Source of the DNA: Nitrosopumilus sp.
Lineage (GTDB): Archaea > Thermoproteota > Nitrososphaeria > Nitrososphaerales > Nitrosopumilaceae
Assembly (NCBI GenBank): GCA_965223425.1
Contig: OZ245003.1
Span: 2,176,001-2,240,000 of the forward strand
DNA: 64,000 nucleotides
Direction of reading: 5' to 3'
Notes under the pieces: generated by a model
Databases searched by the model: none
Told to the model about the DNA's origin: nothing
Seen by the model: the letters and a program-made list of their open reading frames with translations, nothing else
Part shown: positions 9,727 through 52,634 of the stretch, piece by piece
How the letters are laid out: each line of letters opens with the position of its first letter
Position numbering within the stretch: the first letter of the stretch is position 1
Position numbers and translations under genes: made by a program

Positions 9727-11406
9727 GTAACAATTCGGATTTCTGGAGTGAATTTTGGGGTGCCGAAAGAGATAAAGATCACGGCTAGAACACACATGTG
9801 ATGCCGGCGGAGTTTGATCCTACCCGCGTAGACTGGGACAACCAAGACACAAACTATCTCTTTAAGCATTTCAAATCAGTGTTTGATCAGGAGAGAAGAG
9901 AGAGAAAGTCGTTGGAAGAAAAAGTCAAGCAGCAAAATGATACAATCAAGCAGCAAAATGACACAATCAGGCAGCTGGAAGAAGAGAACAGGCAGCTAAG
10001 GACAGGATCCGCAACCCAAAAGCCGGCCAGGAAGGCAAGAAGCTACAATGTGAGAAAATTCAAGGAATATCCGCGGCCAAAAAGCGACAAAAATACCGGG
10101 ATGCGCGGCAGGGAACAGAAGACTGACATCCCAGTCACAGATCACAGGGACGCAGACATTTCATATTGTCCCGGATGCGGTCTCAGACTTGCAGACAGCA
10201 GTACCGATTACGACCGTGACATAACAGACATACAGGACGGCAGGGCGCGCCGCATCAGATGGAGCGTGGCGCGCCGCTACTGCAGGAACTGTAAAACGTC
10301 ACACTCCGCACGCATACCCGGCACCCTGTCCGGCTCTCAGTATGGAATCACGATAATCTCCCAGGTAGTGCTGATGCGTTGCATGGGCATACCGTTTGAA
10401 AGGATAACTGACCTATTTGACATGATATACGGGATACAAATCCCGGGTTCAACGCTGGTCTCCATGTGCGAAAAGGCGGCATGCCAGATGAGGCCCGTCT
10501 ACGACGGACTGCTTGCAGGGATGATTCACAGGGCTCGCGCCATATACGGGGACGAGACCGGATGGTTTCTCAACGGACTGCATTACTGGGTATGGGTTCT
10601 AGTCTCCACGCACGGCGTGATATACCACATATCATCGACGCGCAGCAAGCAGGTGGCAGAGGCACTGGCAGGTGAGTTTGACGGAATTGTAATATCGGAC
10701 TCGTATCTGGCATGGAGTGGAGTAGGCCTGCTACACCAAAAGTGCCTGCTGCACTATTTCAGGGACATGTACAAGACCCTGGAGGAGAGCTGCAGTAACG
10801 AGTTTGCCACATTCTTCAAGAGACTGCACGGCATACTCAAGGATGCCATAGACGCACGGGAAAAGTACGACAGTAATGCGGTTCCAGCAGACGTCACACA
10901 AAGGCTGCAGGACAGGATAGACGCGCTGGCACGGCAGTCATACGACGATGCGGACTGCCGGAGGTACGCAAAAAGGCTCAAAAGGGAGGGGGATCAGCTG
11001 CTGACGTTTCTAGAGCACGGCGTGGAATACCACAACAACAAAAGCGAGAGGGCCCTGAGGATGTTTGCCACCATGCGCAAGGTCAGCTACGGCAGCAGAT
11101 CCGAGAAGGGCATGTACATCACAGAGACGCTGGCAAGCATATACGCCACATGCAGGATGCGCGGTGCAAACCCGTACAGTTTTATCCTGGAATGCCTTGA
11201 CGGCCGCAGAACCGACGGGATTCCCATGGCTTGTCCGGACAAAGCTGCGGCAGTAAAGTGTGTCTGTGCCTAAAACGCCGCAACATCGCGCACACATGTA
11301 TGGGGCTGAGCGGCGTTTTTGCCGATTTTGAACTGTCACTATATAACGGGGCGTGATTTGTCTGTCAAAATAAATCCCCCACAACTCCACAAATCCGAAT
11401 AGTTAC
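9727..11406 (+). mobile_element. IS66-family single-ORF element (ISBst12-group-like)
   Basis: IR GTAAC(A/T)ATTCGGATTT; 8-bp TSD GCCTTGCG at 9719-9726 and 11407-11414. Confidence 0.92.
9798..11273 (+). CDS. IS66-family transposase (TnpC-like)
   Basis: Coiled coil, CPGCG...CRNC zinc finger, GDETGW, ISDSY, HQKCLLH, NNKSERALR. Confidence 0.92.
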   Translation: MMPAEFDPTRVDWDNQDTNYLFKHFKSVFDQERRERKSLEEKVKQQNDTIKQQNDTIRQLEEENRQLRTGSATQKPARKARSYNVRKFKEYPRPKSDKNTGMRGREQKTDIPVTDHRDADISYCPGCGLRLADSSTDYDRDITDIQDGRARRIRWSVARRYCRNCKTSHSARIPGTLSGSQYGITIISQVVLMRCMGIPFERITDLFDMIYGIQIPGSTLVSMCEKAACQMRPVYDGLLAGMIHRARAIYGDETGWFLNGLHYWVWVLVSTHGVIYHISSTRSKQVAEALAGEFDGIVISDSYLAWSGVGLLHQKCLLHYFRDMYKTLEESCSNEFATFFKRLHGILKDAIDAREKYDSNAVPADVTQRLQDRIDALARQSYDDADCRRYAKRLKREGDQLLTFLEHGVEYHNNKSERALRMFATMRKVSYGSRSEKGMYITETLASIYATCRMRGANPYSFILECLDGRRTDGIPMACPDKAAAVKCVCA

Positions 11407-12233
11407 GCCTTGCGGCGCACTCTAGACGGTTTAGCACCTCAAGGTTCCATCCTATTGTCTTGCACAGTCCAAACCGCCTTCTTGTGGATGTCTTTCTGAA
11501 CCTGCACAGCAGCCGGTGGCCCTCTGTCTCCTCTGCTCCAAATATTCCCTCTATCATGCCTCGTTTTTTGTAGATCTCCCCGTCAAACAGCCCTGCGGCC
11601 TTTTTCCTGAACTTTTTTGTTCTGTTCACGGCATTGCCCCTCTGCTTTATGTTCGGGGTCATGCCGGCACCAAAGACAAGCCTGCAGTTCCTATCAGAAT
11701 CATACCCCCTGTCTGCGTTGAACCTGCCTGCAAAGGCAATGCCTGTCTTTTTGATCTTCTTTAGCAGCGAGGCAAAGACTGTAGTGTCTGCCATCCTGTT
11801 GGATGTGATGCGGCAGGAGAGTATGACCTGCAGGCCCAGTACCGAGGCCACGTGCCATTTCAGGTATTTCTTTTGACGCTTTGCCTCCGGTTTGTGCCTG
11901 TTTCTGGCCTTTTTTTGCACCCTTTCATACCTGTCAGTGGCAACGCCGCTGCTGTCTGATGCCAGCGTGAGATCAGAGGCATCAAATCCTGCAAGGCACG
12001 ATGCTGCCGTGACGGCAATCATGTCCTCAAGCCACGCAACAGGAATCTTTTGCATGAACCTGGCAATGGTGCTGTGATCCGGCAGGGGTTCGTTCCACGG
12101 CATCCTCAGCAGGGCTGCAAGATTCTCCATGTCCCTGAATGTAAAGTCAAGGCACACCGTGAGTATGCAGAGAAATGCAAGCTTGTTTTTGTCATGTACC
12201 GGTTTGCGCCCCGCACCAGACCTTCTGGCATGT

Positions 12234-13602
12234 CAGTAGTTCCCAGATGTAGATTTACCGCAACCGCAACTGGCATCGGTTCTACTTGCCTCGATCATTG
12301 ACAAACAACTCGTTTCTGCTTGTAATGTACACGATAAACAACGCCATGGTGAGTTTTTTTCCCGCAGAAGACACTCTTCCATGCCTCTTTCCCGCATCAA
12401 GGCAGAACCTGGCAATCCTCCACAGGTTGTACAGCAGCAGCGGCAGGTAAAACATCAGCAGCCTCACAGACAGGGAGTTGCTGCATGTCCTGCCCATGAT
12501 CTCCTTTATGACGCGAAACCCCGTCTCGATGCCCCATCTCTTGCGGTACTGCTCCGGTATGATGCCTGTCATGGCTCTGGCGCTCCTGATGGGAATGTTT
12601 GTTGCAAACGCAATGTATTGCTCCTCCCCCTCCTCTTCCCCCTCCTTTTTCTTCTTCTTCTTCCTGTCTCTTTTGACAATTACAAGGTTGTAGGTCACAG
12701 TTACGCCGTCTTTGTTGGTCATTGACTGCTGCGATACCTGGCTTGCCTTTCCGTCCTTGTACATCTTGACTATCCTCTTGATCTTGGAGTTCATGATGAC
12801 AGGCATGATGTAGCGGCACCCGCCCTTTCCTGCCTCTGTCATGCAGTCAACGTTGTAAAAGGCGCGGTCGTACAGGAACACAGTCTTTGAGTGTGCGCCC
12901 CCTCTGAGGATTTTCGTGCGTGTTTTGGCTATAAAATCGGCCAGTTTTTCCTTTGCCGGCAGCAGCTGCGATTCCAGGACAATCTGCGAGGAGTCCCTGC
13001 CGACTCCGTGCACTGCGACATACGAGAGAAACGTGGATGTTCCTGCCCTTGGACGCGACTTTCTTGTATGCTCCTGCAGCTGCTCCCCATGGTATGGTAT
13101 GTCCGTAACGTCTATTGCAATGGCGTCGATGTCCTGCAGCATTCCTGCACGGCAGGCGTGCCGCACCGTGCGTGCTAATGTCTTTGCACACCAGGCCTGC
13201 ACGTCTGCCGGTTTGACGCCACGGACTGCAGACATGACCAGGTCTGCATCAGGCGTACGTGCACCCGTGTCTTGAAGCCTGTTGTGCCGTACGAGGGATT
13301 CTACAAACGTGTTTCTCTCAGACGCCTTGATTAGCACGTCCAGTATGTCATTGCATCCGTATACGGCGTTGTGCCTCTCAGACATTGGCATGCCAAGCTT
13401 TTGAAACGACGAGCGCAAGATTTTAAACCGGTTTGATGTTATATTGTACTGGCGTGCGATCAGTTCGTCATGTAATTCGACTTTCATGACATATTGCACG
13501 CCGTAGCCTAATCTGGATCTTTGCATTGCAGTTATGCGGTAACGCACCGGCATCTGGGCATAAACCTACATCTGGGCACAAATCTACATCTGGGAACTAC
13601 TG
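12234..13602 (-). mobile_element. ISH3-family IS
   Basis: 23-bp IR CAGTAGTTCCCAGATGTAGATTT; 4-bp TSD ATGT at 12230-12233 and 13603-13606; 18-bp subterminal repeats at 13551-13595. Confidence 0.92.
12282..13553 (-). CDS. ISH3-family transposase
   Basis: AIDVTDIPY, YDRAFY and YRKRWGIETGFR motifs. Confidence 0.92.
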   Translation of the reverse strand: MPVRYRITAMQRSRLGYGVQYVMKVELHDELIARQYNITSNRFKILRSSFQKLGMPMSERHNAVYGCNDILDVLIKASERNTFVESLVRHNRLQDTGARTPDADLVMSAVRGVKPADVQAWCAKTLARTVRHACRAGMLQDIDAIAIDVTDIPYHGEQLQEHTRKSRPRAGTSTFLSYVAVHGVGRDSSQIVLESQLLPAKEKLADFIAKTRTKILRGGAHSKTVFLYDRAFYNVDCMTEAGKGGCRYIMPVIMNSKIKRIVKMYKDGKASQVSQQSMTNKDGVTVTYNLVIVKRDRKKKKKKEGEEEGEEQYIAFATNIPIRSARAMTGIIPEQYRKRWGIETGFRVIKEIMGRTCSNSLSVRLLMFYLPLLLYNLWRIARFCLDAGKRHGRVSSAGKKLTMALFIVYITSRNELFVNDRGK

Positions 13603-13954: not shown

Positions 13955-16900
13955 CTATTGCGTCTGGTATATGTCGCCGTACTCCGCATCGCGCAGCTGC
14001 TCCATGAGCGCCGTGTGCCCTGCCATCTTTGCGGCAAACGCGTCGCACAGCCTGTTGTTGACGTCAGTGCAGGCAGTGCCGGTGCTGTGTGCGGGGCCCT
14101 CAAGGTAGTGCCACGTGCCGTACGAGTTTTTCGTCCAGGTGTAACCTAACTGGTCAGTCCACACGTCATTTATCTTGTCTGTCCGCACCAGCTCGTGGGT
14201 TATGATATCAGACTGGGAGGAGTACTTTGTCTGTAGCAGGATGACCATTGGCGGGTTAAGCGACTCCCCTGATATTGCCAGCCCGTCGTTCATGTAGTGG
14301 TTTGTGACGCGGCGCTTGGAGTCCACTGCCTGGATCATGAATGGCTCGTCGTATGTCTGCTCCAGGAACAGGACGCCAGATATCAGGACGGAGATGCAGT
14401 CGTAGTCGTTGTTGCTGTTGTTGTTGTTCTCCTCTCCTTTTGTGGCCGTCGTCGCTGCTGCTCCCGGCTTGACATCGGACATGCACGCCGCAGAATCAAC
14501 AGAGGCTGTGATGCCTGACGCGTCTATTACGGAGCTTGTGCTTCCGCGGCGGACATCATGCGATATTCCTGCCACCTCGTAGGTGGAGTCTGTGGTGTAG
14601 TTGCGTCCCAGATGGACGGTTATGGAGGCCTCTGCGTCAGAGAACGGGGATCCCACTGAGGGCACGCCAAAGCCTACTGCCACCCTGTCAAGGCCCTTTT
14701 CTGCGTATGCCTTTAGCGCAAAGTCGTGCGTGGAGCCGGTCCGTATCTCTGCGCGCTGATAGTCGACGTGGTATGCCAGCACGTCGTGGCACGACCCGTC
14801 CATGGAGTAGCCGCAGGAGACCAGCTTCTGGTTGGTGCTCCAAGAGTTTCCAAAGGTTGGGCGGGTCTTGTGCTCGTTGTCGTCATCGCTGGTGGTGTCA
14901 GGCGCAGAAAGGTTCAGGACAACCCGGAGGTATACGGTGTTGTTGTCTGAGTCAGTACACGAGTATAGGATGGACTGACTGTCTTCTGTGGTTGGATCAT
15001 ACAGGTTCTCATTCTCACTCACGGGCGTAATGTCGCCGTCCTCCGGGTCAGAGCACGTCACGCCCAGATCGGCAAGATCAAAGCCGGTATCGCGGTCCAG
15101 CGTGATGCTGTCAGGCCCGCTTGAGTCGGGGTTTACCGTATACGAGATGACGGGAGGCTCGTTGGGTGGAGGTGGCGTGGTGCCGTCCGGTGGCTGGTTT
15201 GTGTCAGTTATGGTCATGTTGTGCTGTGCAGAGCCTGTGGCGCCGTAGTCGTCAGTTACCTTCAGCGTGATGAGCAGAGAAGTGTCTTCTGCGACCTGGG
15301 GCGCCGTAAATGATGCAGTTTCCTGGTTGCCGCCGGTGATGGTTACTGCCGGGTTGCCGGCAGTCCAGTTGTATGATTGTATGGTGCCGTCAGTGTCAGC
15401 AGAGCCGGTCCCGTCAAGGGTTACCTGCGTTCCCTCTGCTGCCCGGGAAGGCGCGCTGATTGACGCAGTGGGGGGAACGTTGCCGTCCGGTGGTGGTGGT
15501 GGTGGCATTATCGCAGGTTCCGTAACAGTTACGGTCCTGGTTACCGGATCCGGGCTGTTGTACCCGTCTGAGCAGGCATACACCACATCGTACTGGCCTG
15601 CTGCATCCGTGTTCACCGCATCAAGGCCGCTGACTGTGACGGTAATGGGACGGCCAGAGTCAGTGCAGGTTGCCCCGTCATCTGTGTATGTGTCGCCCAC
15701 TGTCAGCGATACGGATGACAAGCCGTTAAGGGAAAGCACGGGTGTCACGGTATCCTCCACATGGACTGCTCTGGTCACGTTTTGCGCGGCAAGCCCGTGT
15801 TGGTCTGTACACGAGTAGGTGTACAAGTACGGAGCTAACGGGATCGTGTCTGTATCCACATTGGAGGAGTTGGTAAGCGTCACGTCATCGCCGTCAGGAT
15901 CGGCGCAGGCTGCCCCGGCATCTGTATACGTGACGTACCTTTCTGCAGTTGCAGGATCCTCGCCGTTTAGGGTGATTGTTGGGGGCCGGTTTACGTCATT
16001 TATGGTCATGGTGTGGTTTGCAGAGCCGGTAGCGCCGTCATCATCAGTTACCACCAGCTTGATGGCCAGCGTGGTGTCCTCTGTGACCGGGGGTGCCGTA
16101 AATGATGCTTCTGCCTTGTCAGCATCAGTTATTGTGATGGACGTGTTGTTGGCAGTCCACGCGTAGAGTGATATGGTGCCGTCATTATCTGTCGAGCCGG
16201 TTCCGTTAAGTGATACCGTTGCTCCCTCTGCTGCCCGGACAGGCGCGCTGATTCTCGCAGTCGGTGGGACGTTGACGTCCGGTAGCGTTGGCGTGACTGT
16301 TGAGGGCTGGTTTATTTCTGTGATCTGTAGGTCAACGGCCTCTGCTATCTTGTTGCCAGAAGCGTCGGCGACTGCGCCATGCCCTATGTCAAGCTGCGGC
16401 GGCGCGGGCGAGAGCTCCGAGTATGCCGTCTTTTGCGCGGAGTCTAGGGTGGCCGTGACGGTTTTACCCACGGTGGATCTTGTGGTTATATCAGAGAATG
16501 TTATGCCCGCCGTGTCTGAGCCTGTTGCGCGGATGTGGATCTTCGTGTAGTTAGTCTCAGTTGCAACCAGTTCCTCGCTGAATGTCATCGTTATGACGCC
16601 CGAGTCTTTGTTGTACGTGGCCGAAGAGAACAGAAGCGCCGCACTGTCAGACGTTGCATTGATGCTGTAGGACGGGCCTATGTTGTACTCGCTCACACGG
16701 TCGCGCAGACTGTCCATCATGAACATCTTGGTGCCGTCAGGCGAGAAGGCGATGTCTTCCGGCACGTTGTCCTGGTTTCGGACCCGGGTGGACTTGTCGC
16801 TGTAGGAGGCAGTGGTGATATCAAAGGCTGTGGAGAGCGCGTACTGGCGCACGGCGCCGAACTCATCGCCCAGCATGAACATCTTGGTGCCGTCAGGCGA

Positions 16901-19900
16901 GAAGGCGATGTTTGCCGGCAGATTGTCCTGGTCTCTGACCACTAAGAACTTGCTGCTGTAGGAGGCGGTGCTGATATCAAAGGCTGTGGAGAGCGCGTAC
17001 TGGCGCACGGCGTCGTGCTCAGTGCCCAGCATGAACATCTTGGTGCCGTCAGGCGAGAAGGCGATGCCTATCGGATCGTTGTCCTGGTCTTTGACCACTA
17101 AGAACTTGCTGCTGTAGGAGCCGGTGCTGACATCAAAGGGTGTGGAGAGCGCGTACTGGCGCACGGCGTCGTGCTGAGTGCCCATCATGAACATCTTGGT
17201 GCCGTCAGGCGAGAAGGCGATGCCTATCTGCGCGTTGTCCTGGCCTTCGACCACTAAGAACTTGCTGCTGTAGGAGGCGGTGCTGACATCAAAGGGTGTG
17301 GAGAGCGCGTACTGGCGCACGGCGCCGTGCTGAGTGCCCATCATGAACATCTTGGTGCCGTCAGGCGAGAAGGCGATGCCTATCGGCTTGTTGTCCTGTG
17401 ACGCGATGAAGGATCTCAAGAACGATGTGCCGTTGGTCAGGTCAAAGGGCTCCGTTATGAAGTTACCTGACCTGTCAGATATCGCGGTGGCGGCTATCTC
17501 TAGGTGCGGGCTGTTCATCGCGATGACTGCCTGTTTGTCTGCTTCTGCCAGCCTGAGGGTAATTGAGCTGGCGGTGACCCCGACAACGGAGTCGCCGGAC
17601 AGGGCCACGACACCCGTGGTGGATCCGGGCTCCCTTATGTATAACTTGAATTTGTTTAGGCTGGAGGAGTCAATGCTCTCGTTGAAGGTGAGGGTCAGTT
17701 GGCCGGTGTCCTTGTCTAGTCCTGCCGAGACCAACCTAGGCCTCATGGAATCCGTAACAGTTACAGTCTGGGTTACCGGATCCGCGCTGTTGTACCCGTC
17801 TGAGCAAGTATACACCACATTGTACTTGGCGGCAACAGCCGTGTTCACCGTATCGCCACTGACTGTGTGAACAATGGTATACTGAAGGCGAGTAAAGAAG
17901 GTGGAAGGTTCACCCAGACCGTCGAGAACGGGACGGCCCGAGTCAACGCATCTTGCCCCTTCCGGGTACGTGTCGCCCACTGCCACTGATACGGATGCCG
18001 AACCGTGAAGGGTAATCACAGGTTTTATGGTATCCACCACAGAGACTGATCTGACCACGTCTTGCGCGGCAAGCCCGTGTTGGTCCGTACACGAGTAGGT
18101 GTACGAGTATGGAGTGCCTGGGATTGTGTCCGTGTCCACAGTGGAGGTGCTGGTAAGCGTTGTATCATCGCCGTGAGGATCGGTGCAGACTGCCCCGGCA
18201 TCTTCATACTCGAAGTACCTTTCTGCCGTTGCAGGGTTGGTGCCGATCAGGGTGATTGTCGGGGGCCGGTTTTCTGTAGCCAAGATGCTGACTATCTGGA
18301 CGCCGTCGTCAACGTTTGCAGCTACCAGGGCGTAGGTGCTGGAGCCCATCTTTACCGTGGTGATGCCCAGTGCGCCGTCAAGCACGTCAAATCTCTCAGT
18401 TTTCCCGTCGACTGTGACGGTTTCCCCGTCAGTAATGGAGGCAGTCGGGAAGGGGGTTGTGGGATTGGTAATGTCGATTATCTGGACGCCGTCGTCAGCG
18501 TTTGCAGTTACCAGGGCGTAGGTGCTGTTGCCTATCTTTACCGTGGTGATGCCCCGTGCGCCGTTAAGCTCGTCAAATCTCTCAGTTTCCCCGTCAGTAA
18601 TGGAGGCAGTCGGGAAGGGGGTTGCGGGATTGGTAATGTCGATTATCTGGACGCCGTTGTCATCTTTTGCTGCAACCAGGGCGTAGGTACTGGAGTCTAT
18701 CTCTACCGTGGTAATGTCCCATGCGCCGTCAAGCTCGTCAAATGTCTTGTTTGTACCGCCGACTGGGACGGTTTCCCCGTCAGTAATGGAGGCAGTCGGG
18801 AAGGGGGTTGCGGGATTGGTAATGTTGATTATCTGGACGCCGTCGTCAGCGTTTGCAGCTACCAGGGCGTAGGTGCTGTTGCCTATCTTTACCGTGGTGA
18901 TGCCCAGTGCGCCGTCAAGCACGTCAAATGTCTTGTTTGTACCGCCGACTGGGACGGTTTTCCCGTCAGTAATGGAGGCAGTCGGGAAGGGGGTTGCGGG
19001 ATTGGTAATGTCGATTATCTGGACGCCGTCGTCAGCGTTTGCTGCAACCAGGGCGTAGGTACTGGAGTCTATCTCTACTGTGGTAATGTCCCATGCGCCG
19101 TCAAGCACGTCAAATGTCTTGTTTGTACCGCCGACTGGGACGGTTTCCCCGTCAGTAATGGAGGCAGTCGGGAAGGGGGTTGTGGGATTGGTAATGTCGA
19201 TTATCTGGACGCCGTCGTCACGGAATGATGAGACCAGGGCGTAGGTACTGGAGTCTATCTCTACCGTGGTGATGCCCCGTGCGCCGTCAAGCTCGTCAAA
19301 TGTCTTGTTTGTACCGCCGACTGGGACGGTTTCCCCGTCAGTAATGGAGGCAGTCGGGAAGGGGGTTGCGGGATTGGTAATGTCGATTATCTGGACGCCG
19401 TCGTCAGCGTTTGCTGCAACCAGGGCGTAGGTACTGGAGTCTATCTCTACCGTGGTGATGCCCCGTGCGCCGTCAAGCTCGTCAAATGTCTTGTTTGTAC
19501 CGCCGACTGGGACGGTTTCCCCGTCAGTAATGGAGGTGATCGGAGCAACGTCGAGGTACTGTAGTGGTTTTACGTCAGTTATGGTGATGTTTTCTACCTG
19601 AAATACAGGTGAGATGCCGTAAAACGGATGCGTGTCACTTTTTAGATCCTGTATAGGACTGGTGAGCGGGCCATTATCAGCATTGTTTGGAAGTCCAGCT
19701 CGCACCATGTCAGCGCCAAGGGGTGCGGTGCCGTGTTTTGTCCCATCTGCATTAGAACCAGTAAACACGGCTGATGTAGCATCAGAACCAAACAGGAATA
19801 CGTTTCCGTTCTCGTCCCGCGCGGATCTCTCCTCATTCCATGATCCGTCGTAAAAGTCCTGATAGTTGTCTGCCACCTTTGCGCCGCCTAGCCAGTAGAT

Positions 19901-20281
19901 TGGGGGGCCCTTGTCTGTACTGTTATAGGTGGTACCGGTGTGGTCGCGCGCACTGACTGCACCTGTACTGCCCACCACCTTGAATGACGAGCTGTGTTCT
20001 TGGATGTCTGTATGGCCTGCCGCTACGAGGCCTTGGATGTACGTGTCATATACTGTAATGTCAGTAGGTACGGCGTTGTGTTTAGTTGATGTCGCGATAA
20101 GCAGCCTGAACTGGTCCCCCTCACCAAGGCCCGAGGGTATCAGGCCCCAGTCTGTCGGAACAGACGTTGCATCCGTCGCAGCATCTGCAAGGGGGATGCA
20201 AAGTGGAATCAAAAGAACAAGTGCCGCTATTGCTACTGCTGTCGTTGTTGCAGGCAACGGCGGTTTTATCAATCGTTGCAA
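13955..20281 (-). CDS. Giant secreted/surface protein (2108 aa): signal peptide, lectin-like N-domain, LVIVD-type propeller, DUF5011/Ig-like, second propeller, PKD-like modules, C-terminal domain
   Basis: Hydrophobic N-terminal signal; seven ~62-aa repeats (YALVAA..DDGVQIIDITNP); 52-aa IAFSPDGTKMF repeats; PTITL.G...GA.C.D...Y.CTD Ig repeats. Confidence 0.9.
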   Translation of the reverse strand: MQRLIKPPLPATTTAVAIAALVLLIPLCIPLADAATDATSVPTDWGLIPSGLGEGDQFRLLIATSTKHNAVPTDITVYDTYIQGLVAAGHTDIQEHSSSFKVVGSTGAVSARDHTGTTYNSTDKGPPIYWLGGAKVADNYQDFYDGSWNEERSARDENGNVFLFGSDATSAVFTGSNADGTKHGTAPLGADMVRAGLPNNADNGPLTSPIQDLKSDTHPFYGISPVFQVENITITDVKPLQYLDVAPITSITDGETVPVGGTNKTFDELDGARGITTVEIDSSTYALVAANADDGVQIIDITNPATPFPTASITDGETVPVGGTNKTFDELDGARGITTVEIDSSTYALVSSFRDDGVQIIDITNPTTPFPTASITDGETVPVGGTNKTFDVLDGAWDITTVEIDSSTYALVAANADDGVQIIDITNPATPFPTASITDGKTVPVGGTNKTFDVLDGALGITTVKIGNSTYALVAANADDGVQIINITNPATPFPTASITDGETVPVGGTNKTFDELDGAWDITTVEIDSSTYALVAAKDDNGVQIIDITNPATPFPTASITDGETERFDELNGARGITTVKIGNSTYALVTANADDGVQIIDITNPTTPFPTASITDGETVTVDGKTERFDVLDGALGITTVKMGSSTYALVAANVDDGVQIVSILATENRPPTITLIGTNPATAERYFEYEDAGAVCTDPHGDDTTLTSTSTVDTDTIPGTPYSYTYSCTDQHGLAAQDVVRSVSVVDTIKPVITLHGSASVSVAVGDTYPEGARCVDSGRPVLDGLGEPSTFFTRLQYTIVHTVSGDTVNTAVAAKYNVVYTCSDGYNSADPVTQTVTVTDSMRPRLVSAGLDKDTGQLTLTFNESIDSSSLNKFKLYIREPGSTTGVVALSGDSVVGVTASSITLRLAEADKQAVIAMNSPHLEIAATAISDRSGNFITEPFDLTNGTSFLRSFIASQDNKPIGIAFSPDGTKMFMMGTQHGAVRQYALSTPFDVSTASYSSKFLVVEGQDNAQIGIAFSPDGTKMFMMGTQHDAVRQYALSTPFDVSTGSYSSKFLVVKDQDNDPIGIAFSPDGTKMFMLGTEHDAVRQYALSTAFDISTASYSSKFLVVRDQDNLPANIAFSPDGTKMFMLGDEFGAVRQYALSTAFDITTASYSDKSTRVRNQDNVPEDIAFSPDGTKMFMMDSLRDRVSEYNIGPSYSINATSDSAALLFSSATYNKDSGVITMTFSEELVATETNYTKIHIRATGSDTAGITFSDITTRSTVGKTVTATLDSAQKTAYSELSPAPPQLDIGHGAVADASGNKIAEAVDLQITEINQPSTVTPTLPDVNVPPTARISAPVRAAEGATVSLNGTGSTDNDGTISLYAWTANNTSITITDADKAEASFTAPPVTEDTTLAIKLVVTDDDGATGSANHTMTINDVNRPPTITLNGEDPATAERYVTYTDAGAACADPDGDDVTLTNSSNVDTDTIPLAPYLYTYSCTDQHGLAAQNVTRAVHVEDTVTPVLSLNGLSSVSLTVGDTYTDDGATCTDSGRPITVTVSGLDAVNTDAAGQYDVVYACSDGYNSPDPVTRTVTVTEPAIMPPPPPPDGNVPPTASISAPSRAAEGTQVTLDGTGSADTDGTIQSYNWTAGNPAVTITGGNQETASFTAPQVAEDTSLLITLKVTDDYGATGSAQHNMTITDTNQPPDGTTPPPPNEPPVISYTVNPDSSGPDSITLDRDTGFDLADLGVTCSDPEDGDITPVSENENLYDPTTEDSQSILYSCTDSDNNTVYLRVVLNLSAPDTTSDDDNEHKTRPTFGNSWSTNQKLVSCGYSMDGSCHDVLAYHVDYQRAEIRTGSTHDFALKAYAEKGLDRVAVGFGVPSVGSPFSDAEASITVHLGRNYTTDSTYEVAGISHDVRRGSTSSVIDASGITASVDSAACMSDVKPGAAATTATKGEENNNNSNNDYDCISVLISGVLFLEQTYDEPFMIQAVDSKRRVTNHYMNDGLAISGESLNPPMVILLQTKYSSQSDIITHELVRTDKINDVWTDQLGYTWTKNSYGTWHYLEGPAHSTGTACTDVNNRLCDAFAAKMAGHTALMEQLRDAEYGDIYQTQ
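16678..17397 (-). repeat. About 4.5 x 156-bp tandem coding repeat (beta-propeller blades)
   Basis: Near-identical ATGAACATCTTGGTGCCGTCAGGCGAGAAGGCGATG units every 156 bp. Confidence 0.9.
18285..19545 (-). repeat. 7 x ~186-bp tandem coding repeat (LVIVD-like blades)
   Basis: Near-identical units; one carries an in-frame 8-aa shortening. Confidence 0.9.
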
Positions 20282-20500
20282 CTGTCAGACTCTCCTGTCC
20301 TCTCCTTCTCCCAATACCATTACTGCTGCTAATCCTTCCTCCACCCCCCCCCCCCCCCGATGTCAGGCAACATTGTGGCAGGGAAGGCAAGATTACTGCA
20401 GGAATGACAGAGGCGCAATACGGCTAGCGACGGCTTCTTGAAAGCAGATAACTGAAAGGTGTGACTCAACAACTTGATGCTTTTGTTTTGATATTTATGT
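20282..20500 (-). promoter_or_regulatory. Conserved long 5' leader of giant gene 1 with G15 tract; TATA-like box near 20492-20499
   Basis: Near-identical to 51763..51975; C15 on + strand at 20344-20358; GGAGAG SD-like motif before the TTG start. Confidence 0.7.
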
Positions 20501-20515
20501 ATTTTTTTCAGATTC

Positions 20516-20655
20516 CAGTCTTCCCAGAAGTACTTCGTAGAGATTACCAAGAGGAGAAACTTTCTACTACAAAGAATCACACGCACCCAGAATCTGTAGA
20601 ATCACGGATTACTGGTTATAGTTCAGAGGAAAACTTGGTACTTCTGGGAAGACTG
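20516..20655. mobile_element. 140-bp MITE-like unit A with ISH3-type ends
   Basis: 18-bp perfect IR CAGTCTTCCCAGAAGTAC, similar to the IR of the ISH3 at 12234. Confidence 0.75.
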
Positions 20656-42006: not shown

Positions 42007-43138
42007 TAGTGAATTGGATTAACAATCGGTCACAAAACAGACAACATTGTTTTATCACAAGATCTAGATCCCAGTGTATGGCAGAATCCGCATGAAATAC
42101 AACAATTCTGCAATACCGGCAGACAGAAGGTTCCTGTCCGGCGTCTCCAGTGTGCGCCTGCGCAGCATGCACAAAAAGGAGACAGATCCCAGGGCCGCAG
42201 CAAGGCTGCTGGCATATGCCATGCGCAAGGAGGGCATGTCCATACGCCAGATATGCAGGGCCCTCAACAGGTCATATTCCACAGTACGGGACTGGCTTGT
42301 GCGCGCCGCACAGCTTGGCACCTACGGCAGGTACGACATCAAAAACAAAGGCGCGCCAAACAAGCTCGATCCGGAACAGACAAAGCAGCTGCGCGCAGAC
42401 CTGCTGGCAGGCCCGCGCAGTTGCGGGTTCGAGTCCGGAGTGTGGACGGCACCGCTGCTGGCCGCACACATCAGAAAAAAGTTCGGCGTGCAGTATGCCA
42501 CTGTCAGCATATATGACATACTGCACAGGATGGGCTTTTCGTGCAGAAAGCCGCGTCCAAAGCACCCAAAATCAGCCTCAGAATCAGAGAAAAAAGAGTT
42601 TAAAAAAAAAGCAGAGGAGATAATCCGGAGCCATCCAGACCATACGGTGATTACAGTTGATGAGGCCTCCTTTATCATTGGGTGGAATACCAAGAACGGG
42701 TGGTACCTCAAGGGCAAGCCCGTCACCACTCCAGTCAGCCTGTCGCGCAAAAGGTTCTACTCGTTTGGGGCGCTGTACGACGGCGGCTTTGACTGCAGGT
42801 TCTATGCCAAGGCCAACAGCTACAGCTTTGTGGACATGCTCGGACACCTGCATCTCAAGCACGGCAAGATCATCGTCTTTCTTGATAACGCATCATACCA
42901 CAAGTCAAAGATGGTCAATGATTTTGTCGACTCGTATGACGGCGACATAGTCCTTGTTTACTTGCCCGTGTACACCCCGGAGCTGAATACCACGGAGGGG
43001 CAGTGGAGGCTGTTAAGAAGGGCCACTGCAAACGTGATGTATGAAAGCACAAAGGTGATGAAGGAATCCATATGGACAATGCTGGATAGACGTGAGGTCA
43101 AGATAACAAGAATGAGCGGTTATTTATCCTAGTCACTA
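42007..43138 (+). mobile_element. IS630-family element, copy 2
   Basis: Ends TAGTGAATTGGAT / ATCCTAGTCACTA, flanked by CG on both sides. Confidence 0.92.
42074..43132 (+). CDS. IS630-family transposase (intact, 352 aa)
   Basis: HTH plus DDE (VDEA, LDNASYH, PELNTTE). Confidence 0.95.
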   Translation: MYGRIRMKYNNSAIPADRRFLSGVSSVRLRSMHKKETDPRAAARLLAYAMRKEGMSIRQICRALNRSYSTVRDWLVRAAQLGTYGRYDIKNKGAPNKLDPEQTKQLRADLLAGPRSCGFESGVWTAPLLAAHIRKKFGVQYATVSIYDILHRMGFSCRKPRPKHPKSASESEKKEFKKKAEEIIRSHPDHTVITVDEASFIIGWNTKNGWYLKGKPVTTPVSLSRKRFYSFGALYDGGFDCRFYAKANSYSFVDMLGHLHLKHGKIIVFLDNASYHKSKMVNDFVDSYDGDIVLVYLPVYTPELNTTEGQWRLLRRATANVMYESTKVMKESIWTMLDRREVKITRMSGYLS

Positions 43139-49100: not shown

Positions 49101-51762
49101 CAGCGTGGAGATTGTCGTCGTTATCACCTGCATGCACAGTAGCATTAACAGGCGTTACTGCTGAGGGGGCCACAGACAGCGCAAAGTCGCCGGGAGCGAC
49201 ACCGGCGTCAGCTACTGCCTCTGAAAGCCCGATGTGAATGGCAGTGGAGTTGGACGTGCGGGCAGACTTTGGTATGGGGGGCGCCATATCTATGGTTCCA
49301 TCAAAGGTCCCCGTGTGCGCGGCGTTCCCGTTGGTGTCCTCCACGCTTCCTCCGGATTCAGAATCATACGTGATGTCAGGCGGATCGGCAGTGAAGCCGT
49401 TACGCCCGGAGATGCCAAGCGTTATCTGGTTGGCGGCGCCTGCGGGATCCGAGTTGAAATGTACTGTTCCACCTCCGGCAGACAGCCCGAACCCGGAGCC
49501 GTCAGTCGCATCAGACTTTACGTCGACTGGCTCGCTGTAGGTCAGGACTATGGTGCCTGCCCCGAGCAGGGCGGCATCAACAATTACGGGTGACACCGTA
49601 TCGCGGACTGTAACCGGGCGGACCACGGGGCCTGTGTGAATGTTGGTGTCTGGATCAGTACAGTAGTAGCTGACCTCGTAGAAGCCCACGGTGAGTGCGT
49701 CAACTGGTGCGGTAAAGTTTATCACGAGGTTCTCCGGGGAGAGCGTGTCATCGCCTGCACCGTCAATGCATACGGCGCCCGGCTCGTCGTATCCGGAGCC
49801 CCACTCCACAAAGTACGGGCTGTCGCCGTTTAGCGTGATTGCGGGGGGCCTTGGATCAAATATTATTACGGTCTCAGTTATTGTGTGCGAGTTGCCAGAG
49901 GCATCAGTGACGGTGTATGTGACGTAGTAGGTTCCAGGACTGTCCGTATCTACTGCGTCGGCGTTCTCTGTGCTCTGGGTGGTCTGGTCGCGGTCAGTCA
50001 CGTTTAGGATCGTGCCTGCAACGTATATGCCCCCAAGGTTTATGGTGGTGGTATAGTCTGCGTCGTGCTCATCGACTACAAATGCGGGCTTTACGGTGTC
50101 GCGGACTGCGACTTTGCGGATCATGGTGTCGGCCCTGCTGCTGTCGCTGCCGCTGTCATCTGCTGCACAGTCGTAGATAACTTGGTACTCCCCCACGGCA
50201 AGCCTGTTGACACTGCCGCTGTTTATGATGACTTTGCTTGTTAGGTCGGTGCCGTCTGCATCATTACACGTGGCCCCGGACTCTATGTCTGTATAGTTGG
50301 CGCCGCCAAGCTCCATCTGCTGCGGGTTCACACCGAAAAGTTTGATTACTGGCGTGGTCTGGCCTGCAACAGAACTTGCCGAGATGTCTATTATCTGGAC
50401 GCCGTTGTCACCTTGTGACGCGACCAGGGCGTAGATACTGGTGCCGATAGTTACTGTGGTGATGCCTCGTGGGGCGTCAAGCACGTCAAATGTCCTGTTT
50501 GCACCGGCGATTGGAACAGTATCTCCGTCACCAAAGGAGGCTGTCGGGAAGGGGTTTGAGGAATTGGTAATGTTGATTATCTGGACGCCGTCGTCACTGG
50601 TTCCTGTAGCCAGGGCGTACGTGCTGGTGCCTATCTCTACTGTAGTGATACTATCTACGCGGTTAAGCTCGTCATATGTCCTGGTTGCATTGCCGACCAT
50701 GACGGTTTCCCCCTCACCAAAGGAGGCTGTCGGGACGGGGTTTGCGGGATCTGTAATGTCGACTATCTGAACGCCTAAGTCATTCCATGCTGCGACTAGG
50801 GCGTACGTGCTGGTACCGATAGTTACTGCGGTGATGTCATTTGCAAATGCAAGCTTGTCAAATTTCTTGGTTACATTGCCGACCATGACGGTGTCCCCTT
50901 TATCAAAGGAGGCAGTCGGAACGGGGTTTGCGGGATCTGTAATGTCGATTATCTGGACGCCGTTGTCAAGGAATGCTGCGACCAGGGCGTACGTGCTGGA
51001 GTCTATATCCACTGTGGTGATGCCTCGTGCATAGCTAAGCTCGTCAAATGTCTTGGTTGCATTGCCGACCATGACGCGATCCCCGTCACTAATGGAGGCT
51101 GTCGGGACGGGGTTTGCTGGATCTGTAATGTCGATTATCTGGACGCCGCTGTCTTCGTTTGCTGCGACCAAGGCGTACGTGCTGGAGTCTATCTTTACTG
51201 TGGTGATGTCATATCCGCCATGAAGCTCGTCAAATGTCTTGGTTTCTCCGTCGACTGTGACGGTGTCCCCGTCATCAAAGGAGGCAGTCGGAACGGGGTT
51301 TGCGGGATCTGTAATGTCGATTATCTGGACGCCTCTGCCAAAGGATGTTACGACCAGAGCGTACATGCTGGAGTCTATATCCACTGTGGTGATGCCTCGT
51401 GGGGAGTCAAGCTCGTCAAATGTCCTAGTTTCCCCGTCGACTGTGACGGTGTCCCCGTCATCAAAGGAGGCAGTCGGAACGGGGTTTGCGGGATCTGTAA
51501 TGTCGATTATCTGGACGCCTTGGTCAGTGGTTGCTACGACCAGGGCATACGTGCTGGTGCCTATCTTTACTGTGGTGATGTCATATGCTTCATCAAGCTC
51601 GTCAAATGTCTTCCCGTTGGAATGTCTCTGATCTTCAGTGATAGAGGCTACTGGAACAGGCGAATCTATCGTGGCTTCCGCAAAGGGGATGCAAAGGGGA
51701 ATCAGAAGAACAAGTGCTGTTGCTGCTGTTGCAAGCAATGGCGGTTTTATCAATCGTCGCAA
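43144..51762 (-). CDS. Giant secreted/surface protein (2872 aa): signal peptide, LVIVD-type propeller, many DUF5011/Ig-like and PKD-like domains, second propeller, low-complexity linker, thaumarchaeal-type C-terminal domain
   Basis: Repeats YALV...GVQIIDITDPANP; AFS.DGT blades; TITY.C.D modules; IPPYFKQTAKW...EFVAALSYL C-terminus. Confidence 0.9.
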   Translation of the reverse strand: MRRLIKPPLLATAATALVLLIPLCIPFAEATIDSPVPVASITEDQRHSNGKTFDELDEAYDITTVKIGTSTYALVVATTDQGVQIIDITDPANPVPTASFDDGDTVTVDGETRTFDELDSPRGITTVDIDSSMYALVVTSFGRGVQIIDITDPANPVPTASFDDGDTVTVDGETKTFDELHGGYDITTVKIDSSTYALVAANEDSGVQIIDITDPANPVPTASISDGDRVMVGNATKTFDELSYARGITTVDIDSSTYALVAAFLDNGVQIIDITDPANPVPTASFDKGDTVMVGNVTKKFDKLAFANDITAVTIGTSTYALVAAWNDLGVQIVDITDPANPVPTASFGEGETVMVGNATRTYDELNRVDSITTVEIGTSTYALATGTSDDGVQIINITNSSNPFPTASFGDGDTVPIAGANRTFDVLDAPRGITTVTIGTSIYALVASQGDNGVQIIDISASSVAGQTTPVIKLFGVNPQQMELGGANYTDIESGATCNDADGTDLTSKVIINSGSVNRLAVGEYQVIYDCAADDSGSDSSRADTMIRKVAVRDTVKPAFVVDEHDADYTTTINLGGIYVAGTILNVTDRDQTTQSTENADAVDTDSPGTYYVTYTVTDASGNSHTITETVIIFDPRPPAITLNGDSPYFVEWGSGYDEPGAVCIDGAGDDTLSPENLVINFTAPVDALTVGFYEVSYYCTDPDTNIHTGPVVRPVTVRDTVSPVIVDAALLGAGTIVLTYSEPVDVKSDATDGSGFGLSAGGGTVHFNSDPAGAANQITLGISGRNGFTADPPDITYDSESGGSVEDTNGNAAHTGTFDGTIDMAPPIPKSARTSNSTAIHIGLSEAVADAGVAPGDFALSVAPSAVTPVNATVHAGDNDDNLHAAPHAASVSVDGSRITLLLNGTLHGNQDVKVSYQKGGSIGSGTGSGGTINDLSGGTTLAGSVPIGQQADFPVAMTLSKDGTTIFVLDFFNNLHAYGLPAPWDTSGASHAYTTPLSSLIPPIPVNSTVTVNPETYMAGLAFSDDGTRLFATDALDGSVIHEFAFSSPWNASAESFSSYTAHSLSLSGIGPNTDLRGIAFSPDGTTMYIASDRNDQIHEFSLTDAWNASSAFLTPHSISAQGPRADAADVTAGIAFSADGSRMFVAVPDKNLINEFALSEAWNISSAAHAGSFSPGPSVFSVLPPGSLSFVDVELPFEPSDVAFSADGTSMFVLDESAGDDFPDSVSGLTPAVKGYALAPPAKPFDPGALPNQLGSFGLREVQNTLPVARAGPDVFAYTNTAVSLDGTGSYDANGDTLAYLWEQTGGPGNVALDDHTLQKPAFIAPAVADSGPPIVLEFTLTVSDETGNADRDTVAVTVLAGVGTPAIVSASVVSATQFEIVYNKAVHGNSTDYTNLVIDGRGQTVGVVAGTGTATHTVSYSPSDTTATTTATTATDATGTVDIGAGITDAHVPDISLVPVVGQTLSDGVAPTLVSARTGPASNQIDVTFSEAVRSGASDDFVGWSVSLGDNNDNYNTVITVTGLDGTRSTATLTLQKPVMPSDATPDVTYDAAAGSVSDAAGNALATATVTATAGHPAGLHIHLIGDAFLYHPYGEPYTDEGVLCHDADGNDITDTGDYETLPYLRQLNQTVDGERLGVDVNLHENTVLNFTHQSQNEYRPFDPQEVIYRCVTPLGSVEEGRTVALRDETPPEIRLNGPRDVDLEIGETFDDTATCTDAPLESQMELLNAAFYLTFTNSSLPDGYQDTAGEHTITYTCSDSKGNDAETSRTLHVGTPDNTPPVLAVNPGIVTTLANGTHVVRQDVGFAAAGDGGGLQSAVSCTDNRDDTPAITLDPATVDTSSAGTHTITYSCTDAAGNPSNTVTVTWDFGPAAPVLAVTPADTAVTLAINASYSIPAASCTDHKDGDITNTGILTAISSGGQPVDEIDTSSAGTYDITYSCSDSDGNTVEHNVTVTIRAATTDNTPPHIVLKSPPLTLFVPAGAAFADADPGAFCIDGQDGRTDEGIDVDATALDTAVLGNHTVTYSCTDSGGLRSDTISRPVSVYGFTVNGNIADFATDITTSDVYEPYAILDITNIKNPVNSTKYRDTTGQETAVPFNGTTLQAGTWSVTYAVSGRDDVSNPINFEIEETITVATATAPPDDNVTPTARISAPATADEGATVTLDGTGSTDTDGTISSYAWTTNDTSITITNPSQATASFTAPNVTKDTRLVITLDVTDNKNAPGSAQHTMTITNVNQLPDGTPDTTPPTFTVDGNAVDFATSLTEGQTYTEGTIGNIIEADSPPTDQGTRYYNGTGDAATIITAENEIDSIDNTQPAVGSYTVQYSVSDSAVPPNTHTITETVTVGEASVIAPPPPPSPPSNTPPTITLNGNSTVTVKESLPGEEDPLYDDPGATCTDSEDADAEGYPELKTGGDTVRTSVPGTYAITYHCLDSDGDTSETLTREVTVTEEKPKLALDGPNLVSLPIGASSDMINNINLNATCTDPQEGTINDRIEVQLLFGNNQTSIDTINDISDIRNQIKTDQRVTYEIKYSCTDRNDGRSAEPAIIKVEVGRSGGGSSGDVSAPSIRTGFDAGQYPLVYDGVKYGPDTIDSPHTATIRAGSGERLLSTLTVYENGGAQNVRHVDMFVAHNGRTIHNDGTETHVTYDSGNVRITDPHGLIASATVDASAIDATKAQFEFAITFAKKVPLSDVLYRLWDTSRNALYIHLEDALVVSEGRKGGSSSGGSGSSGGGGGGGSSSSSSTATPATGSGNGTTTTTTTTAGNGTAADTADKQQPQPQQPRQGFTAEQLDTLKQWGGFASQSASDSQLLAQFGIEGTSIPPYFKQTAKWFLDADDGGDGLTAQEFVAALSYLGQRGLLN
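43380..43575 (-). repeat. Trinucleotide-rich low-complexity G/S, T and Q/P linker
   Basis: GGSSSGGSGSSGGGGGGGSSSSSST...TTTTTTT...QQPQPQQ. Confidence 0.8.
50385..51660 (-). repeat. 7 x ~186-bp LVIVD-like coding repeats
   Basis: Homologous to 18285-19545 but more diverged from one another. Confidence 0.88.
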
Positions 51763-51975
51763 CTGTCAGACTCTCCTGTCCTCTTCTTCTTCTCTTACCA
51801 TTACTGCTGCTAATCCTTCCACCCCCCCCCCCGATGTCAGGCAACATTGTGGCAGGGAAGGCAAGACTACAGCAGGAATGACAGAGGCGCAATACGGCTA
51901 GCGACGGCTTCTTGAAAGCAGATAACTGAAAGGTGTGGTTCAACAACAAGATGTTTTTAAGATCGTATTTATAAA
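51763..51975 (-). promoter_or_regulatory. Conserved long 5' leader of giant gene 2 with G11 tract; TTTATAAATA box near 51966-51975
   Basis: Near-identical to 20282-20500; C11 on + strand at 51822-51832. Confidence 0.7.
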
Positions 51976-51995
51976 TTTGGTTTGGCTTGAGATCG

Positions 51996-52634
51996 TCAGG
52001 CATGGTACGAGGCGTGGCTGTGCCTTGAGGCATTGACAAGGTTAACAAAATACACGTGTAATGAAATATCCTCGGTGAGTTCGGGATGAAAGGAAGTACC
52101 AATCACATTTCCCTTTTTGACGGCAACTATTCTTTCATTAAATTTTGAGAGGACTTTGACATCAGGACCGACATCAGAAACAGACGGCGCCCTGATAAAG
52201 ACTCCAGCAAATTTTGGAATGCCAATCGAGTCCATTGACACGTCGGCCTCAAAGGATTCGCGCTGTCGTCCAAAGGAATTCCTTTCTAGTTTGATGTCAA
52301 GGATGCCCAACAGGGGCTGACCGGTTTTTCCCATTACACGATCATCGGCAGTCTTTGATAGCATGATCATGCCGGCACAAATTCCAAGCGTAGGCATTCC
52401 GTTCTCGATCTTCTCTTTTAAAACCCTCAACGAGCCGTTTACCAAAGAAAGTTGTCCGATAGTGGTACTTTCACCACCAGGCATTATCAACCCATCTAGC
52501 TGAGAGATTTCTTCAGGAGTTTTTACATCAGTTACTTTTCCATCGATACCTAGATCATTGAGGGCAGAGCGAGTAGACCGGAGATTTTCTTGAACGTCAC
52601 CCTGAATAGATAAAACTCCAACGTTAAGACTCAT
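51996..52634 (-). CDS. pdxT: PLP synthase glutaminase subunit
   Basis: PGGESTT, GICAGMI, RNSFGRQ and FHPEL motifs. Confidence 0.96.

Follow-up and report, generated by a model that had tools for sequence, protein, structure and literature searches.

Phase variation by means of simple-sequence repeats is a textbook way in which host-adapted bacteria hedge their bets, and in Campylobacter, Helicobacter, Neisseria and Haemophilus poly-G/C contingency loci make up what is called the 'phasome'. The genome described here resembles these bacterial phasomes in that G/C runs lie far above chance in surface-protein, glycan-modification and restriction-modification genes, in that MutS/MutL repair of slippage loops is missing, and in that several genes stand one slip from being in frame; it differs in that the host is an archaeon and in that the run lies in a short upstream open reading frame (uORF) that is separated by a stop from the main ORF. 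The repeat of the Neisseria opa genes is a pentamer in the signal-peptide coding region. About 11 such genes are dispersed over the chromosome, each of them independently phase-variable, as described in PMC3745409. Our family is likewise a dispersed set: some dozen surface-protein genes share a conserved 5' cassette, each copy of which includes a repeat, and since each gene has its own repeat, a cell could show changing subsets of the proteins. Unlike the opa pentamer, which lies within the coding region of small outer-membrane proteins, the repeat here is a mononucleotide run in front of giant archaeal proteins.

Several bacterial systems place the repeat in a leader. In Moraxella catarrhalis, a poly-G tract upstream of the start of the large adhesin gene uspA1 sets the expression level (G9/G10, or G11/G12 in another strain; PMC7302503), and the position of that tract is like the one reported here; uspA1 differs in being bacterial, in its graded action at the level of the transcript and in having no uORF described in the excerpted text of that source. 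In the tlpB/RepG system of Helicobacter pylori, a variable G-repeat in the mRNA leader decides downstream output, but a C/U-rich trans-acting RNA is required (PMC8295292), whereas the only C/U-rich partner that we saw lies in cis. The transcribed leader of the very large adhesin gene hmw1A of Haemophilus influenzae contains a repeat that pairs with an arm of the same leader, and this 5'-UTR hairpin is processed by RNase III (PMC12721329). There the repeats are heptamers and expression is inverse to repeat number, in contrast to the present leader, which folds no more stably than shuffled sequence. Translational coupling by termination-reinitiation, in which an upstream stop adjoins a downstream start, offers another point of comparison (PMC6728339, PMC10666635). 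In Haloferax and E. coli, reinitiation is described as needing overlaps or very short gaps and as almost gone at ~20 nt (PMC10666635). In known cases the two genes form a fixed pair and mostly overlap by 4 nt or 1 nt, whereas the candidate junction described below has a 3-nt gap and would have its upstream frame set by a mutable tract.

In the literature searched, no archaeal poly-G contingency locus was described. Archaea appear in bulk homopolymer statistics (PMC2831843), a 2025 preprint cites a 1987 paper for them, a 2025 review names them as future work (PMC11868660), and a 2026 methyltransferase review contains no archaeal phase-variable case among those listed in its excerpted text (PMC13076061). 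Going by this literature, bacterial-style tract switching is hardly documented in archaea. Here we describe a family of giant archaeal genes in which a poly-G tract probably lets each gene switch on and off via copying slips.

The stretch of DNA analysed (the window) is 64,000 nucleotides long and corresponds to C1:2176001-2240000 of a 2.64-Mb genome, which is assembled in two contigs and is 99.99% complete. The window includes archaeal genes for KEOPS Cgi121, ribosomal protein S17e, archaeal PheT and archaeal GlmM, and the archaeal amoA family was detected in the genome; the host is an ammonia-oxidising, Nitrosopumilus-like archaeon. Two giant genes lie on the minus strand of the window, each an ORF with a TTG start: giant gene 1 (13955-20281), which encodes a secreted repeat protein of 2108 aa, and giant gene 2 (43144-51762), which encodes 2872 aa. 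Both ORFs matched bacterial-surface Ig-like, PKD and beta-propeller repeat families, and for giant gene 1 the matches were Bact_surface_Ig-like, K319L-like PKD, PKD_4 and the beta-propeller repeats SGL, PD40 and LVIVD. The N-termini of both proteins were read by us as signal-peptide-like. The records that hold their nearest homologues are labelled Nitrosopumilus sp., Cenarchaeum sp. or Nitrosopumilaceae archaeon.

Transposase genes of the IS66, IS5-like and ISH3-like kinds were found directly 3' of giant gene 1 (window 9798-13553), and an IS630 transposase gene directly 3' of giant gene 2 (42074-43132), with a second IS630 at 58760-59857. A 140-nt element whose ends are perfect 18-nt inverted repeats (20516-20655) adjoins the predicted promoter of locus 1 on its upstream side. 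About 16 further copies or pieces of this element, in either orientation, are scattered over the genome; four precede other family leaders, and the element looks like a miniature inverted-repeat transposable element.

The earlier note on this DNA had described near-identical leaders in front of the two giant genes, reaching from a TATA-like box to the TTG start and differing mainly in G15 versus G11 plus a GGA. Our comparison bore this description out. The conserved leader of giant gene 2 (51763..51950, minus strand) is 90% identical to that of giant gene 1 (20282..20472, minus strand) over query positions 17-219 of 219, and the likeness extends from the TATA-like boxes (20492-20498 and 51966-51975) to the TTG. 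The tracts, read directly from the sequence, are G15 at locus 1 (20344..20358, minus strand; C15 on the + strand) and G11 at locus 2 (51822..51832, minus strand; C11 on the + strand), with a 3-nt GGA difference just 3' of the tract. At locus 1, the predicted archaeal promoter (20492..20506, minus strand) is an ATAAATA box at 20492-20498 with an A-run on its upstream side and marks the onset of homology; the predicted box of locus 2 is TTTATAAATA (51966..51975, minus strand). Indeed, among the nine full-length leaders of the family, likeness starts at the TATA-like box, a motif found at -209 to -235 in 9/9. The leader length of ~190 nt assumes a predicted transcription start ~25 nt past the TATA box and is based on the predicted promoter alone. 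Inspection by eye revealed no A/T-rich box that would form a second promoter between the tract and the TTG at either window locus. An AGGAG, a Shine-Dalgarno-like core complementary to the 3' end of the genome's 16S rRNA, lies 10 nt before the TTG of locus 1 (20292..20296, minus strand), and with this core of its own the TTG may initiate independently. Two antisense ORFs on the + strand (19929-20441 and 51220-51813) were considered and rejected as by-products, because only the first of them spans a tract.

At both loci, an ATG situated 15 nt before the tract (20371-20373 at locus 1, 51845-51847 at locus 2) opens a putative uORF. The locus 1 uORF (20329..20373, minus strand), MLPDIGGGGGWRKD, runs from this ATG through the tract and ends at a TAG at 20329-20331, which we term the early-stop state (frame 1, stop at -50). 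The locus 2 uORF (51635..51847, minus strand, within the listed ORF 51635-52102) crosses the giant gene's TTG out of frame, the overlap state (frame 2). In the third frame, a TGA (20285-20287 and 51766-51768, respectively) closes the ORF 3 nt ahead of the TTG. These three outcomes had been claimed from the window sequence and all of them hold. The junction TGA-N3-TTG that results (20279..20287 at locus 1, with the TTG at 20279-20281, and 51760..51768 at locus 2, the latter read from the sequence; both minus strand) is unchanged in 11/11 loci that share the 3' part of the leader.

The same three states recur among the paralogs. In the nine leaders with an ATG, the uORF ends at the TGA beside the TTG in three (L004, L006 and L008), stops early, 41-53 nt upstream, in two (L001, which is window locus 1, and L009), and overlaps the TTG out of frame in four (L002, L003, L005 and L007, the last being window locus 2); a miscount of one in the assembled homopolymers is possible and would shift every one of these frame assignments. 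At L010 and L011, a TTG-led ORF also ends 3 nt before the main TTG. The toggling of the uORF by slippage that the earlier note proposed is supported in one part, in that the three frame outcomes are real and are all seen among nine paralogs, and is weakened in another: the uORF ATG, whose conservation had been named as a check, is present in 9/12 family loci and absent in three, two of which have a TTG instead.

In the mechanism that we propose, the poly-G run would act as a contingency tract, a hypermutable simple sequence carried in the transcribed leaders of a family of 12 giant secreted surface proteins. Replication slippage would alter the run by one or two G's, with no MutS or MutL found that would mend such slips, and a short ORF that begins 15 nt before the tract would be read through it. 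In one frame, the uORF would end at the TGA 3 nt before the TTG and terminating ribosomes could reinitiate there, turning the gene on; in a second, the uORF would stop 41-53 nt earlier, too far away for coupling; and in the third, it would cross the TTG out of frame, so that elongating ribosomes would occlude the start. Because reinitiation drops steeply with distance, the 3-nt state would allow coupling and the 41-53-nt state would not. If the coupling model applies, the assembly has captured each of the two window genes in a non-coupled state. We estimate the probability that tract length alters protein output at each locus at roughly 0.7. That the switch acts via the reading frame, through slipped-strand changes of the uORF frame and termination-reinitiation, is our tentative preference, held at just under even odds.

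Several features of the leader accord with this proposal. An uninterrupted G/C run of ~8 or more is the usual mark of a contingency locus, and the run is 11-16 long at 12 loci. In the predicted leaders of the nine ATG and two TTG loci it falls within an ORF that a start codon opens, a position that would suit a switch. A uORF end 3 nt before the TTG, a distance suited to coupling, is found in 3/9 of the ATG loci and in both TTG loci. Other features temper it. By our own chance estimates, an in-frame stop within two codons of the start has a probability of ~0.1 and an ATG within 20 nt of the tract one of ~0.3; thus neither the stop/start adjacency nor the ATG near the tract would be rare by chance. 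No Shine-Dalgarno-like motif was seen before the uORF ATG on reading the locus 1 leader sequence, and RNA polymerase slippage on long G runs could blur the frames.

To place the two window genes in their genome, we searched it with the 219-nt leader and found nine full-length copies (80-100% identity) and two copies of the last 50-70 nt, giving 11 loci. Among the 55 ORFs of at least 900 aa, the 12 with a G run of at least 8 within 400 nt upstream are exactly the paralogs of the window genes. All 12 carry G11-G16, 62-175 nt before the start, as opposed to 0/43 of the other ORFs of this size. Their tract lengths are 15, 11, 14, 13, 14, 13, 11, 14, 12, 14, 11 and 16; the proteins range from 1483 to 7840 aa, and the 12 genes sum to 44,429 codons. 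The long G run is kept at L010 and L011, where the 5' part of the leader is different, and in the distant twelfth paralog, which has an ATG start and its own G16. Within leader L011 (C1:1341530-1341617), a 25-nt pre-tract motif and G11 are present twice, 77 nt apart. The giant proteins are mosaics of one another with two kinds of conserved C-terminus, one of which ends in an acidic D/G-rich loop followed by LTAQEF (for example at window 43144-43330); by eye, this loop resembles a calcium-binding (EF-hand or dockerin-like) loop.

The leader was the best conserved segment among the nine full-length loci. Averaged over their 36 pairs, identity reached 81% in the leader; it was 77% for the signal-peptide region and 63-64% for the gene body, and it fell to 54% on the 5' side of the TATA box. 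Given intact giant ORFs and a leader that has diverged less than the coding body, we consider the stop-before-TTG arrangement to be in use. Of the five pairs with the most similar flanks (92-97 of 100 flank positions identical), four differ in tract length, which indirectly supports the view that the tract changes faster than its flanks.

At the DNA level, the leader had no match in 40 genomes of relatives, 24 from the same genus and 16 from the same order, and the comparison with relatives was therefore made through protein and G-run patterns. The relative G081 has 18 tracts of at least 10, eight of which precede ORFs still open at the end of the 3.2-kb locus. Two of its loci have an ATG just a few codons 5' of the run from which the frame continues into a clear signal peptide; two paralogs of one such ATG-polyG signal-peptide locus have the ATG out of frame, and at another locus the stop of a short ORF directly adjoins a GTG start. 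In G007, the TGA of a short ORF bearing G15 overlaps the TTG start of a giant ORF. In G118 and G017, we examined 40 of the 42 tracts of at least 11 and found twelve at the 5' end of ORFs open for ~880 codons or more; these twelve form families with common leaders and differing run lengths, and in G017 the run lies inside the N-terminal coding region. Since the ATG and poly-G of relatives are in frame with signal peptides or lead to a stop at the main start, these loci favour a mechanism that works through the reading frame. One relative with more than 30 paralogs had no G run of at least 8 at the gene starts examined (52 loci in several records), which indicates that the tract is not bound to the protein family as such.

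The fused forms also suggest that the uORF is a former N-terminus, and they raise the question of whether the tract is merely a relic of an ancestral in-gene switch, in which a stop has cut off the old N-terminus, the TTG initiates alone and slipping is immaterial. The AGGAG 10 nt before the TTG would serve such a solitary start, and the frame states (3, 2 and 4 of 9) are near equal, as under neutral drift. The short ORF lacks a coding signature, with variable columns by codon position of 11/12/8 before the tract and 8/7/1 after it, and no indel was seen on the five tracts compared below in run contigs, where the leader tracts were not spanned. Neutral runs, however, are expected to shorten or to be interrupted, and an uninterrupted run of at least 11 persists in 12/12 paralogs although their leaders differ by 4-36%. 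The position of the leader as the most conserved segment and the invariance of the junction speak against disuse as well, as does the rarity of Shine-Dalgarno-like cores in this genome, where they precede 89/863 long ORFs versus 51/863 in the control. We therefore regard a mere relic as unlikely and continue to favour a tract whose length matters for output.

Length could also matter without any reading frame. The earlier note had suggested a G-quadruplex or a structured cis-regulatory RNA, and a length-dependent rheostat, in which the run would act as RNA or as non-template DNA, could work through a quadruplex, through cis C/U-rich pairing or through the binding of a C/U-rich small RNA, with tract length tuning transcript level, stability or ribosome access. 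The G tracts and repeats of bacterial adhesin leaders, as described in PMC7302503, PMC8295292 and PMC12721329, are precedents for this. A quadruplex needs four G-runs that can stack two or more tetrads, and with the quadruplex option of RNAfold one was predicted in the tract of 12/12 leaders, with a lower folding energy (at locus 1, for example, -85.9 instead of -65.9 kcal/mol). Without that option, L001-L007 fold with the tract paired to CCUUCCCUGCC, which lies upstream of it. The twelfth paralog and two G081 loci, whose tracts lie 159-224 nt before the start with no nearby in-frame ATG, would also be easier to explain in this way.

The suggestion of a structured RNA fared poorly, however. 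The leader folds no better than its shuffled versions, 144/200 of which were at least as stable (z = +0.61); only 3/64 consensus pairs were compensatory, as against 21 with non-canonical cells; L008 and L009 do not preserve the small hairpin that covers the ATG; and Rfam held no match to the leader, even when hits with E up to 1 were admitted below the gathering score. The data thus do not support a leader fold of special stability. The C-rich partner is missing from the leaders of several relatives, a sliding G:C/U helix would barely be affected by a change of one G, and the tract of relatives is plainly coding. A rheostat of this kind we consider improbable, and the switch through the uORF frame remains our preferred account of how tract length would act.

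We then asked how the family tracts relate to the G/C runs of the genome as a whole. On the chromosome, 25 G/C runs of at least 11 were observed versus 0.15 expected under a first-order model. The length distribution is bimodal: there are 62 runs of 7, 16 of 8, 3 of 9, 6 of 10, 12 of 11, 5 of 12, 2 of 13, 4 of 14, one of 15 and one of 16, so that 34 are of at least 9. The excess falls in surface, glycan-modification and restriction-modification genes, as is typical of contingency loci. Outside the family, one cluster has tracts in three sulfotransferase genes; others occur in two Eco57I/MmeI-like restriction-modification genes and in a DNA methylase-HNH gene, where the tract is at codon 2. In both Eco57I/MmeI-like genes the split falls exactly at the G run (G10 and G12), and a run of n=11 would restore the frame. 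MutS_V and MutL domains were not found in the 99.99% complete genome, whereas a NucS_C (NucS-type) domain is present; in mycobacteria, NucS is described as leaving 1-2 nt indels unrepaired (PMC11551767). These tract genes and this repair set correspond to those of bacterial contingency loci.

The sulfotransferase cluster (C1:303000-333400) contains six G10-G12 runs, three of them inside the sulfotransferase genes, where all three are in frame in the assembly, and one in an alpha/beta-hydrolase gene with C on the sense strand. Contig C2 (123 kb) has 46.9% G+C, compared with 41.2% for C1, and carries 0 of the 34 runs. A CRISPR array of 74 repeats (C1:1357298-1362540) includes 2/73 spacers with G9 or G10 runs, and a CRISPR spacer of G081 (L092) holds G10; spacers with G runs mean that invading DNA may also carry such runs.

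Homopolymers of at least 10 are error-prone in long-read assemblies, and runs of this kind or their lengths might come from sequencing chemistry or assembly error. Some drafts of the genus do contain clear poly-G artefacts, at contig ends or with hundreds of matches (G062 and G103), and two restriction-modification genes that are both intact at n=11 are compatible with miscounts of one. The tracts described here, however, are interior to a 2.5-Mb contig and occupy equivalent sites of 12 paralogs in conserved context, and their lengths of 11-16 exceed a miscount of one. Complete genomes of relatives carry the same type of tract at the same type of gene. We also compared contigs of four runs (X1, X3, X5 and X6) over C1:1341000-1360500, a region picked for its two leader tracts and three further tracts; contig cover there was fragmented and spanned neither leader tract. 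The unique tract at C1:1350189 was reproduced as G11 without gaps in the independent contigs X1 and X5, from two runs of different studies, and on the five tracts of this region no indels were seen in these fragmented contigs, within which the leader tracts were not spanned. Of the 45 k-mers covering the G15 of the window, 25 were repeated elsewhere in the genome, a repetitiveness that predicts such gaps in spanning, and a metagenome pattern scan for the tract with its flanks gave 0 matches. Taken as a whole, an artefact is very hard to reconcile with these observations, and we treat the tracts as real.

The orientation of the runs followed a simple rule. In this genome, 33/34 runs have G on the + strand between 303 and 1623 kb and on the - strand between 1644 and 2500 kb. 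The same two-block pattern, for runs of at least 11, was seen without exception in five same-genus genomes (24 runs in G118, 18 in G017, 11 in G009, 19 in G082 and 25 on contig C1 of G131). Long ORFs, in contrast, show no bias of orientation in the two blocks, with 247/487 and 162/308 on the + strand. The cumulative GC skew turns at ~1.46 and ~2.32 Mb, and the runs sit on whichever strand is richer in C overall. Because run orientation tracks the chromosome half and not the orientation of the genes, it points to a replication-linked property of the DNA and suggests that slippage may be specific to one replication strand. A purely RNA-level role of the tract would leave the strand rule unexplained. 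The two Eco57I/MmeI-like genes (C1:1622205-1625242 and C1:1642054-1645072) are inverted paralogs that flank the point at which tract orientation flips.

Within the genus, a G11 occurred at least once in 50/120 sampled genomes. Among genomes at least 90% complete, it was found in 27/32 of those of at least 1.9 Mb versus 15/55 of the smaller ones, a comparison in which sizes are rounded, related genomes are not independent and a few drafts contain artefacts. We may be looking at the first worked-out archaeal 'phasome', with dozens of poly-G switches in giant adhesin-like families, surface sulfation and restriction-modification of a large-genome Nitrosopumilus-like lineage, a three-state uORF reinitiation design and an orientation locked to the chromosome half; this wider picture is possible, and we hold it somewhat less firmly than the frame mechanism itself. 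If it is true, ammonia-oxidising archaea would vary ~5% of their coding capacity stochastically, and cell-surface sulfation and DNA restriction would vary with it, which would bear on archaeal life with hosts and viruses. Any such switching in living cells is inferred, as are translation of the uORF and its coupling to the TTG. The junction would also offer a natural, testable case of uORF-dependent reinitiation in Thaumarchaeota, and annotators would be warned that genes that appear 'frameshifted' at G runs may be switches and not pseudogenes.

Two further tract arrangements were seen in G118. At nine loci (L174, L175, L178, L185-L189 and L191), G11-G15 is followed immediately by TAA, and this nine-copy repeat sits at the 3' end of frames open for 70-86 codons. 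At L171, L172, L182 and L190, which form a four-member family, G11-G14 is followed by (TG)4-5, also variable, and a large secreted protein has its ATG ~20 nt after the tract with its (TG)4-5.
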